A DNA stretch of 62,355 nucleotides from a virus (taxonomy: Duplodnaviria; Heunggongvirae; Uroviricota; Caudoviricetes), in IMG/VR virus record IMGVR_UViG_2534682166_000005. One strand, given 5' to 3'. Position numbers: made by a program. Shown piece after piece: positions 48,001 through 51,000 of this stretch (position 1 is the first letter of the stretch; every line of letters starts with the position of its first letter).

Positions 48001-51000
48001 TGCTTATTCTGCGATGATAAGGCGCTCAAATCGCCGTTTTCGACATCAGGCATTTTGTAACGGAATTTTCCGTTGCTGATCTCGCGTACCAGGCGTCTCG
48101 TTGCTGTTACCACCGCCAACGTGGAAGCAACCTTACGAGTGCTGACACCGAACTTCCCCGCCAGTTCCTCACAGGTTTTAGCCCCCTCCTGAGAGATAAA
48201 CTCAATCATCATGTCAGCGCTAACTTTTGGAGCGACCTCTTCGGTCAGCATATCCTGTGTTTCAGATTTTACTGGCCGCTCTTCGGTTACCCCGGCTTCA
48301 CCTTCGACAGCCAGAAACCAGGTGTGACCCGTTTTATCAACAACGCCATTTTTTTTGAGCTCCCACAGTTCGTTGAGAACTTCTTCACGGCTGATATCAA
48401 GCCGCGCCGCCAGTTCAACAGAATTGGCTTTTCCCATCGCTTTCAGTGCATGCAATACGGTTTCCATCGAAAATTTACCTCGTCAAAAATTCTCACATAC
48501 CCTGACGTCCAACGTTTGACCGCCAGCTCTCCCAGTTAAAATTCACCCAACGACCACCGTTCATGGTCATCCGGTCCATAATCCTCTCACCAAGAAGCGT
48601 GCTCATTGCGGCATGATTCAGGTTTGTCAGCATCCCGACACTGCGCAGTGATGCCGTCCGGCGGTCAACAATCTGGTGCAGTACCACCTGCTCGTTTTTC
48701 GTCTCACGCTGGATGCCAATTTCGTCAAGAACCAGGAGGTCCACTTCGCACAGTTCACGCAAAAATTTTTCCCCTGACAGTCCGTCGTCATAGCTGGCAT
48801 GTAACGCGCTCATCACATCCGCCACGGTGACCACTATCACGGATTTACCGGCCTTCAGCAGACGATTACCCACAGCCGCCGCCAGATGATTTTTTCCGGT
48901 TCCCGGATTCCCGCTGAACACGAAGTTTGTATAACTGGTCATCAATTCATCGACAATGGATTTCGCCTGGCTCAGAGCATGGCGCTGACCGTCGTTCTGC
49001 ACCCGGTAGTTCCCGAATGAGCACTTCCTGTGAAGCGGCTGGATGCCCGCACGGTTCAGGATTTTTTCAACCCGCGCCTGATGATTCAGGCGGTTAATTT
49101 CCTCGCTGCGCTTACGGCCCTCAGCCAGTTGCCATTCCCGCCATTCGTCGGTCGTCCGGAACGGTGCTGCCACGTGCGGTGGTGCCAGACGGCGCACCCG
49201 TTCAAGAATCCCTCCAGTCGAAATGTTTTTCATGGCTGATTACCCCCTGAAACCCGGCGGAATTTCGGTGTCCGGTTCAGAAATGTGATTCACGCAACGC
49301 AGGCTGACTGCGCCAGCCTTCGGCAGCGACCACGGATTTTCGAAATTCCTGTTCGGGCCAAAAAACGTCGATGCCTGCTGAACAAATTCAGTTCCCGCTT
49401 TCCCGGTAGCCTCCAGGTATCTTGCGTAACGCCTCACGCCATCCAGCACGACATCCGGTGACACCCCTTCGCGTAATCTGGCCCTCCAGGCATTGAACGC
49501 GGATTTCTTCGGGTTTGACCCTGCCCGATGCGGATATTCACGCCAGACCCGTTCGAACACGTCAGGATAATCAACTCGTCCCGCAGACGGTCCCGGCATC
49601 TCCCGGGTTAACCCAATCGGCTTCCCGCTCATCGCGGAATCGGCATCAGGCTGCTGCGGTTGGTGCTGTTGCTCCGGTTCGACGATCAGCACCTGCTGCA
49701 CACAACGCCCGGAATCTGCTTCCGGTGTCGTGCCAGTTGGTCCTGGACGCTCAGTCAGAACGGGGCAAGAATCCCCCTGTGGGTCCGTGGCGATTTTTTC
49801 GCCATGGACCAGAAGGGTTTTATCTCTTTCCTGTTCCTGTTCCTGTTCTTGTTCTTGGCTTGAAAGGGGCTCTGAAGGGGCTTCAATTTTCCGACATGAT
49901 TCACGTCTGACATCCAGGTGGAAATCATCCTTATATCTATCATAAAAGGATGATAAAAAAGGATTTTCCAGCAACGCGGAATATTCATTTCTTACCCCAG
50001 CACAACGGTTATCGCCAGGTTTCAGCGATTCACCAACCTGCCATGCTGCCATTTCATGCACCCATACAACCTCAGAATCATGGTCATAGCTGCAAAAACC
50101 AGCCTCGCAAGCCATTTGAAGCCCCTTAGAAGCCCCTTCAGGATCAAGTCCGGTTTCGTGAGCAATGTACAAAACAGGCAGGTAATAAAGGCCCAGCATA
50201 TTGGAATGAGGCGAGGTCATCATATACAACGCCACTACCATACATTCCGGACCAGACTTCCTTAGTTTTCTCCCTGTTTCGCCTAACCAGAACTGAGGTG
50301 AAATTGTTGCGTAATTACGCATAGTCCCCTCGCATACAAGATTTACTCCATACCGCAGACGGTCCCGGTATCTCCCGGGTTAACCCAATCGGCTTCAGGC
50401 TGCTGCGGTTGGTGTGACTGCACATTGGTGTGACTGCACATCTTCACAGACGGTCCCGGTATCTCCGGGTTAACCCAATCGGCTTCAGGCTGCTGCGGTT
50501 GGTGTTGTTGCTGGCGAAATTCTTCCAGATGTGGCAGAATTATTCCCGTGTATTGCTCCATGCCCTGCCTGAATATCAGATATTCATCAGGATTTGCTCA
50601 GAACGTCCGGCCCCAACCGGACGTTTTTTATTTGCATGAACGTTAATGGCATGCTGGAAAGCCCGGCTGATCGGACTGATATCAGATGCCATCTGAAACG
50701 CGCATAAAATCGCCGCGATGTATCGCCAGTCGGTACGACTGACCTTCGATTCATGACAGCCAATCATCTTCGCCAGTCCCCTTTGCGTCAGAGCTGACAG
50801 GTTGATAAGTAAATCCGTTTCAGCGCGATCGATATCGCGCTGTGATAGTTTGCTGTAACTTGTTTGTTCCATTTCTTAAGATTTCCAATAGTGAATAGTT
50901 AGTTGAAAGGTATGCGTGGAAACGCATATGGCCTTAGTTGGTCAGATATATTGGGACTCGCTTTGTCAGCGACGTAGGACGAATGTCCATTGTGAAAAGA

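Follow-up and report, generated by a model that had tools for sequence, protein, structure and literature searches.

A polymorphic tandem-repeat array between cII and the replication gene of an Eru4-type lambdoid prophage, probably a lineage-specific scar rather than an origin element

The window, i.e., the whole stretch of 62,355 nt of viral DNA analysed here, comes from a lambdoid E. coli prophage, and its 47–52-kb part corresponds to the immunity and replication region, which reads on the minus strand (Table 1). Genes for DUF1627 and DUF977 proteins are also found in this region. The gene that follows cII had been described as O-like in the initial annotation, but we rejected it as a homologue of lambda O because its 360-aa product has no Pfam match at all, hence neither a Phage_rep_O domain nor lambda O homology, and matches PHROG 1701 (“DnaD-like helicase loader”). 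The N-domain and the C-domain of this protein are matched by separate PHROG families, while its last 25 residues bear a weak resemblance to the C-terminus of DnaT. Searches of Pfam and NCBIfam returned nothing useful either for the replication protein or for the 72-aa ORF called just upstream of its gene (hereafter ORF72). The replication module is of the “Eru4” type of Stx phages, for which Shigella phage 75/02 Stx served as the defining example (PMC8951638); the available portions of the two Eru papers (PMC8044961 and PMC8951638) classify the module and contain no mention of repeats or of an origin. The cII type of the window accompanies close relatives only, and other cII-bearing phages are homologous no further than the cII stop codon.

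The interval between cII and the replication gene is 253 bp long, vs. 32 bp for the cII–O spacer in the lambda sequence, which bears out the earlier remark that it exceeds its lambda counterpart. Its cII-proximal ~30–60 bp align with the oop/p_o region of lambda: the 3′ half of a putative oop-like antisense RNA (GGATTTGYTCAGAACG) and its terminator are clearly conserved, whereas the 5′ half has diverged and the promoter is a weak extended -10 candidate (TGgCAGAAT), which aligns with CATAAT in lambda. Since a sigma-70 promoter scan of positions 50200–51000 gave no consensus site, the start of this RNA is only putative. The lambda oop RNA itself overlaps cII by 52 nt (PMC5869508). In lambda, p_o and the start of O overlap; here, p_o lies about 230 bp away from the start of the replication gene.

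Table 1. Features of the immunity and replication region of the window (strand: +, − or not applicable).
Feature	Position	Strand	Evidence or remark
cI-type repressor gene	51312–52025	+	position and annotation of near-identical relatives
cro-type gene	51011–51211	−	position and annotation of near-identical relatives
cII gene	50576–50872	−	Pfam Phage_CII, E = 3.8e-26
oop-like antisense RNA, putative	50549–50631	+	terminator scan and alignment to lambda oop/p_o
oop-like intrinsic terminator, inside the 3′ end of cII	50600–50627	+	terminator scan
Putative extended -10, TGgCAGAAT	50533–50541	+	just upstream of the putative RNA start
ORF72 (PHROG 2751), judged very probably spurious	50343–50561	−	ORF calling and allele comparison
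Upstream unit, cII-proximal, short form, CCGG variant	50447–50512	−	94–95% to internal copy, two blocks
16-bp mini-repeat, two copies	50409–50440	−	overlaps start of next unit
Upstream unit, rep-proximal, short form, CCCGGG variant	50353–50415	−	97.7% to internal copy over 44 nt
RBS of replication gene, GAGGGG	50326–50331	−	read from sequence
Replication initiator/helicase-loader organiser gene, 360 aa	49240–50322	−	N-domain aa 1–188, C-domain aa 207–360
Iteron pair 1, GAAGCCCCTT twice, 11-bp period	50116–50138	.	EGASKGL-coding part of N-domain
AT-rich stretch, between iteron pairs	49920–49975		
Iteron pair 2, AAGGGGCT twice, inverted vs. pair 1	49864–49886	.	directly before (GAACAG)n array
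(GAACAG)n EQ-coding array	49828–49854		
Internal copy, linker-coding part of replication gene (aa ~217–247)	49581–49673	−	blastn, repeat search
DnaC/IstB-like ATPase gene	48493–49233	−	

As first proposed, the interval is filled by copies of a duplicated internal segment of the replication gene, i.e., part of the DNA coding for the linker. The two ~59-bp direct repeats were confirmed and are far beyond chance: they share 98.3% identity over 59/60 nt (repeat search and blastn), including a 41-nt stretch at 100%, and their sole difference is a 1-nt indel (CCCGGG vs. CCGGG). The cII-proximal unit proper covers 50447–50505, its homology to the internal copy running on to 50512. The third copy, inside the linker region of the replication gene, was recovered by self-comparison and resembles the upstream units in two blocks (95–98% identity) split by 23 extra bp (about 49623–49645), which in the window lie between the near-identical 10-bp direct repeats GATGCCGATT and GAAGCCGATT. 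The window contains exactly three occurrences of a 19-mer core (GCCGATTGGGTTAACCCGG), vs. 0.01 expected, and each unit holds a perfect 10-bp palindrome (GGGTTAACCC). The mini-repeat noticed at the outset is also present, but it measures 16 bp rather than 15 (TTGGTGTGACTGCACA, or GTGCAGTCACACCAAY on the coding strand). Units of 59–86 bp follow each other head-to-tail with a period of 90/113 bp.

The sense-strand RNA fold of the interval is unremarkable (z = -0.27). On the + strand, a z-score of -3.6 was not taken as structure, since the score is driven by the oop terminator and by the palindromes of the two copies, which pair with each other. An Rfam scan of positions 49000–51400 yielded no meaningful match; the only candidate, AgvB, was below threshold (20.7 bits vs. 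a gathering score of 56) and was dismissed because AgvB genes sit at the PR′ moron site (PMC4104026).

Four phages (PhiR5_2, phiSTEC1589-Stx1c, 75/02 Stx and POCJ13) share a near-identical two-unit interval, and the interval is found in 81 of the 5426 complete E. coli genomes, O104:H4 strains included, at least 57 of the 81 having the exact two-unit length. Natural alleles, read at the DNA level, comprise one, two or three large units, which exist in a long form and a short one (minus 23 bp), and the 16-mer is present 0, 1, 2 or 5 times. One unit without the 16-mer gives an interval of 163 bp (relatives L005, L006 and L015); two units are associated with one 16-mer in an interval shorter than that of the window (L104), with two in the window itself, or with five in a longer interval (L103); three short units also make the interval longer than in the window (L101), and three long units, none of which has lost the 23 bp, bring it to 410 bp (L008). 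The two-unit allele, carried by all four isolated phages, is by far the commonest, a predominance that could be due to selection instead of shared ancestry, and the allele with a single 16-mer is common as well (71 blocks of the collection). A zero-copy allele was not seen, every E. coli relative with the same N-domain DNA having at least one upstream unit. Head-to-tail units with a copy number that is polymorphic among otherwise near-identical loci make the array a VNTR, and the locus is a small polymorphic marker in a prophage of clinically relevant strains, including O104:H4. The initial annotation had also considered an assembly duplication. This possibility is refuted: four phages sequenced independently of each other show the identical structure, as do dozens of complete genomes belonging to unrelated strains, and there are discrete one-unit and three-unit alleles besides.

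More distant relatives inform on the age of the array. Those that are ~70% identical over the full length (L018–L027) have the linker inside the gene and no upstream copy, and so do the Tritos-type phages, which share only the linker and the C-domain. The array is therefore recent and specific to the E. coli/Shigella Eru4 lineage; likewise, since distant relatives have the internal linker only, the copying would have proceeded from the gene to the leader. Among close relatives, the interval differs at 0–1 of 253 positions, the adjacent N-domain at 3–5 of 462, cII at 10–13 of 297 and the linker at about 4%; the dnaC-like gene has two alleles, which differ by 15%. Because the adjacent N-domain is almost as conserved as the interval, the low divergence of the latter is better read as mosaicism than as special constraint. 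A distant-mode search found no donor for the unique part of the interval (50513–50575) outside six near-identical phage records, so that the event at the junction is not reconstructable, and a 20-mer scan of the GTDB species representatives returned only chance matches in unrelated bacteria. The spacer between the units may derive from the internal TGTGCAG region through a deletion, but the support for this scenario is too weak for us to assert it.

Where the origin of this replicon family lies bears directly on the function of the array. Across 80 IMG/VR relatives, the replication gene carries an iteron motif of its own, an 11-bp periodic repeat (AAGGGGCTTC / GAAGCCCCTT) with a conserved AAGGGGCTT, present as two copies at +184 and +195 and as two or three copies at about +440 to +462, before the (GAACAG)n array. 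The iteron 9-mer has a density of 7.5 per kb within the 5′ part of the gene and its surroundings vs. 0.18 per kb elsewhere, and the three exact copies of the window are all inside the replication gene. The orientation of the second cluster differs between relatives, so that it encodes IEAPSEPLSS here, VRGFEGAFKGLRS in L018 and SPFKAPSKPLRS in L030, yet the DNA motif is kept throughout despite these different amino acids. An AT-rich dip (GC 0.25) occurs at +340 to +400 in the gene, the GC content of the interval being 0.53–0.60. The origin is thus likely to consist of the AAGGGGCTT iterons, the AT-rich stretch and the EQ hexamers inside the replication gene; its earlier placement near these hexamers was probably right, considering that the family-wide iteron stands directly beside them. 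The array is thereby set apart from the likely true origin of an uncharacterised replicon family, the latter being the more useful lead for the construction of mini-replicons.

Could the repeats nonetheless serve as extra or auxiliary initiator-binding sites, either as accessory origin elements or as titration sites, as the initial annotation had suggested? At face value, the idea is attractive: one copy lies within the initiator gene, as the lambda iterons do, each unit contains GAAGCCGATT, an 8/10 match to GAAGCCCCTT and its best resemblance to the iteron, in addition to the palindrome GGGTTAACCC, and in Acinetobacter-type relatives true iterons are located just upstream of the start codon. 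However, the interval is devoid of the conserved AAGGGGCTT, even with one mismatch allowed, and an 8/10 match is weak evidence when matches with two or fewer mismatches have a background of 0.69 per kb in the window. Moreover, GAAGCCGATT is retained in Tritos-type genes with an unrelated N-domain, and therefore belongs to the linker/C-domain module, with which it travels. Iterons are short (about 10–22 bp), helically phased repeats, whereas the units are 59–86 bp long, present in one to three copies, GC-rich and away from the AT-rich unwinding region; their copy number and internal indels vary freely, and the ~70% relatives do without them upstream. The same differences hold with respect to the lambda ori, where the repeated element also lies in the linker-coding region of the initiator gene, but as four 18-bp sites about 20–24 bp apart near ori; in the Eru4 replication-gene family, the iteron-like behaviour belongs to the different, 11-bp repeat elsewhere in the gene. 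We thus regard a role as binding sites as improbable, even though the initiator may bind the units weakly, given the 8/10 match. A function as upstream regulatory DNA of the oop-like antisense promoter seems more doubtful still. On the + strand, the repeats do lie about 35–195 nt upstream of the putative oop start, but this promoter is itself putative, a variable number of units would shift any regulatory sites, no known operator motif was found and the lambda p_o needs no such element.

Readings that involve expression on the sense strand meet other obstacles. The array might act as a cis-regulatory leader that adjusts how strongly the replication gene is expressed, either by way of the leader ORF or via the spacing from cII/p_o. 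The mechanism proposed is that 16-bp and 1-bp changes in the repeats displace the stop of ORF72, which would lie either ahead of the rep ATG or across it (ATGCGTAA), so that translational coupling would change. In line with this, ORF72 starts 14 nt past the cII stop and ends 20 nt before or 4 nt after the ATG in the commonest alleles, the common single-16-mer allele being the one with the stop in the overlapping frame, and at least one unit is always retained. Nevertheless, no termination position is conserved, because in a third allele class (L008 and P0009) the ORF ends far ahead of the ATG, by about 290 nt in L008; the Shine-Dalgarno sequence of ORF72 is weak, the mRNA structure is not unusual and the ~70% relatives do without such a leader. 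On balance, this leader function is unlikely, and its uORF-coupling component has no positive support. It is about as improbable as the binding-site reading that the array works as a contingency-type switch on the replication module, whether slippage at the 16-bp and 1-bp repeats moves the ORF stop with respect to the rep start codon and thereby sets the dose of initiator, or recombination between the direct repeats around the N-domain and iterons sheds the origin-specificity cassette to yield a replication-dead prophage. The possibility of ORF72 being a true gene for a small phage protein (PHROG 2751) receives some credit from the fact that every phage record, and PGAP too, annotates a hypothetical protein here, and from the first ~25 codons of the ORF, which are kept in all alleles. 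These codons, however, coincide with the putative p_o/oop region on the opposite strand, and the four differences from L008 that they contain are all non-synonymous. Homologues of ORF72 occur only in E. coli; they vary in length from 42 to 102 aa and end in one of three C-terminal frames, and two thirds of the ORF are repeat DNA copied from another gene and partly read in a different frame. A genuine protein is accordingly very improbable. Since neither length nor reading frame is conserved between alleles, ORF72 is very probably spurious, created by accident, as was first thought, and the “hypothetical protein” annotated in E. coli prophages and Eru4-type Stx phages (PHROG 2751) probably corresponds to no gene.

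The array is probably a lineage-specific and unstable nested tandem-repeat scar, non-coding and without a sequence-specific role in origin recognition; of the two readings offered in the initial annotation, a recombination scar is the one that fits best. Under this interpretation, ~90–120 bp of linker-coding DNA of the replication gene would have been duplicated into the leader, at a place flanked by the oop/p_o region and the RBS. Slipped-strand mispairing and unequal crossing-over would then have added or removed whole units (1–3 copies) and the 16-bp sub-repeat (0–5 copies), while a deletion of 23 bp between the 10-bp direct repeats would have produced the short form. The last step is consistent with the internal copies of L001–L006, in which perfect GAAGCCGATT direct repeats flank exactly the 23 bp missing from the short form, as they do around those 23 bp in most relatives, an arrangement that, judged from the sequence, is a signature of slippage. 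We infer the direction of copying, the slippage mechanism and the functional neutrality of the array from these comparisons. When upstream and internal copies were checked for concerted evolution, one site (GAA/GAT) co-varied and one (CCCGGG-A/C) did not.

Such an array is reminiscent of bacterial and prophage VNTRs of the minisatellite type, with which it shares head-to-tail units of 74–113 bp with a nested 16-bp unit, a copy number polymorphic between strains, indels at short direct repeats and a disregard for the reading frame. In contrast to these, the unit copies coding DNA of the adjacent gene and thereby forms a dispersed direct repeat 772 bp away. Mosaic-junction scars and partial gene duplications occur in lambdoid phages, whose mosaicism was reportedly described by Juhala et al. 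in 2000. The array resembles such scars in that it stands precisely at the border of the cII module, which is widely shared, and the rarer replication module, but differs from them by the missing donor for its unique part.

The dispersed repeat also has a structural consequence for the prophage, the only one that is demonstrated. Because the direct repeats bracket the N-domain and the iteron region, homologous recombination between an upstream and the internal copy removes 772 bp and inactivates the initiator. In E. coli SW071611 and SW07163, which represent one lineage, the internal copy is joined directly to an upstream unit of the short form, with the crossover within GAAGCCGATTGGGTTAACCCGGG; the N-domain-coding two thirds of the replication gene are missing, and what remains is annotated as a pseudogene without an N-terminus. 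The direct repeats hence explain one route to the loss of a working initiator in such prophages.

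Within the replication gene, the family-wide motif AAGGGGCTTC/GAAGCCCCTT recurs with an 11-bp period (loci L012–L091 of the relatives compared with the window) and forms two clusters separated by an AT-rich dip. Its density reaches 7.5 per kb in the replication-gene region vs. 0.18 per kb outside, i.e., an enrichment of about 40-fold. At cluster 2, the motif is oriented one way in some relatives and the opposite way in others, so that the encoded amino acids differ. This 11-bp motif probably represents the true origin iterons of an uncharacterised replicon family, which spans phages of E. 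coli, Klebsiella, Acinetobacter and Ralstonia. In Acinetobacter-type relatives (L029, L030, L039, L042 and related loci), two to three further copies of the same motif as in the gene are found at −38 to −16, directly before the start codon, the final one overlapping the ribosome-binding site; in these loci, the region coding for the N-domain is thus bracketed by iteron arrays.

Features of the replication region in the window
Feature	Window position	Strand	Remarks
Iteron cluster 1	50116-50138		about +184/+195 from gene start in L012–L091
AT-rich stretch	49920-49975		between iteron clusters 1 and 2
Iteron cluster 2	49864-49886		about +440 to +462 from gene start in L012–L091
(GAACAG)n array	49828-49854		codes for EQEQEQ run
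oop-like antisense RNA	about 50549-50631	+	overlaps cII 3' end; terminator 50600-50627

In every relative for which the sequence was inspected, the (GAACAG)n array immediately follows iteron cluster 2. Its length varies among close relatives, as seen from alignment gaps of 6 bp and 12 bp, and their replication genes measure 1077, 1083 or 1089 bp. The linker-coding part of the gene (49581-49860) is also its most divergent segment among close relatives (about 4%), the DNA of the N- and C-domains on either side differing by less than 1%. Since the linker and C-domain of the window are those of the relative L008 and its leader (the interval between cII and the replication gene) is that of the L001 type, its replication gene looks, from these sequence affinities, like an intragenic recombinant. 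When the neighbouring DnaC/IstB-like gene (48493-49233) was compared between the window and L002–L004, L006, L013, L016 and L017, two alleles about 15% apart in DNA (102–112 of 741 positions) were recovered, both adjoining near-identical replication-gene C-domains; a sharp mosaic boundary thus lies at the junction between the two genes.

The leader allele with a single large repeat unit adjoins, in E. coli G1/2 (L005, 907-2000), a replication gene annotated by PGAP as a frameshifted pseudogene; in E. coli strain EC2, the replication gene next to the same allele is intact.

Regarding the oop-like RNA, homology to lambda oop is clear in the 3' half and the terminator, but for the promoter there is just a weak extended −10 candidate (TGgCAGAAT, 50533-50541). 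An Rfam match to AgvB at 50568-50629 (+) is sub-threshold (20.7 bits vs. a gathering score of 56), and AgvB genes are located at the PR' moron site (PMC4104026); we therefore dismissed this identity, the match probably reflecting mere terminator-like similarity.

Finally, the last ~25 residues of the replication protein (aa 336–360; 49240-49314) weakly match the C-terminal end of the primosomal protein DnaT (NCBIfam, E = 0.009; PDB 2ru8, 6aep and 9zbt, E = 0.008–0.025), a likeness that may lie behind the old 'primosomal protein I' annotation.
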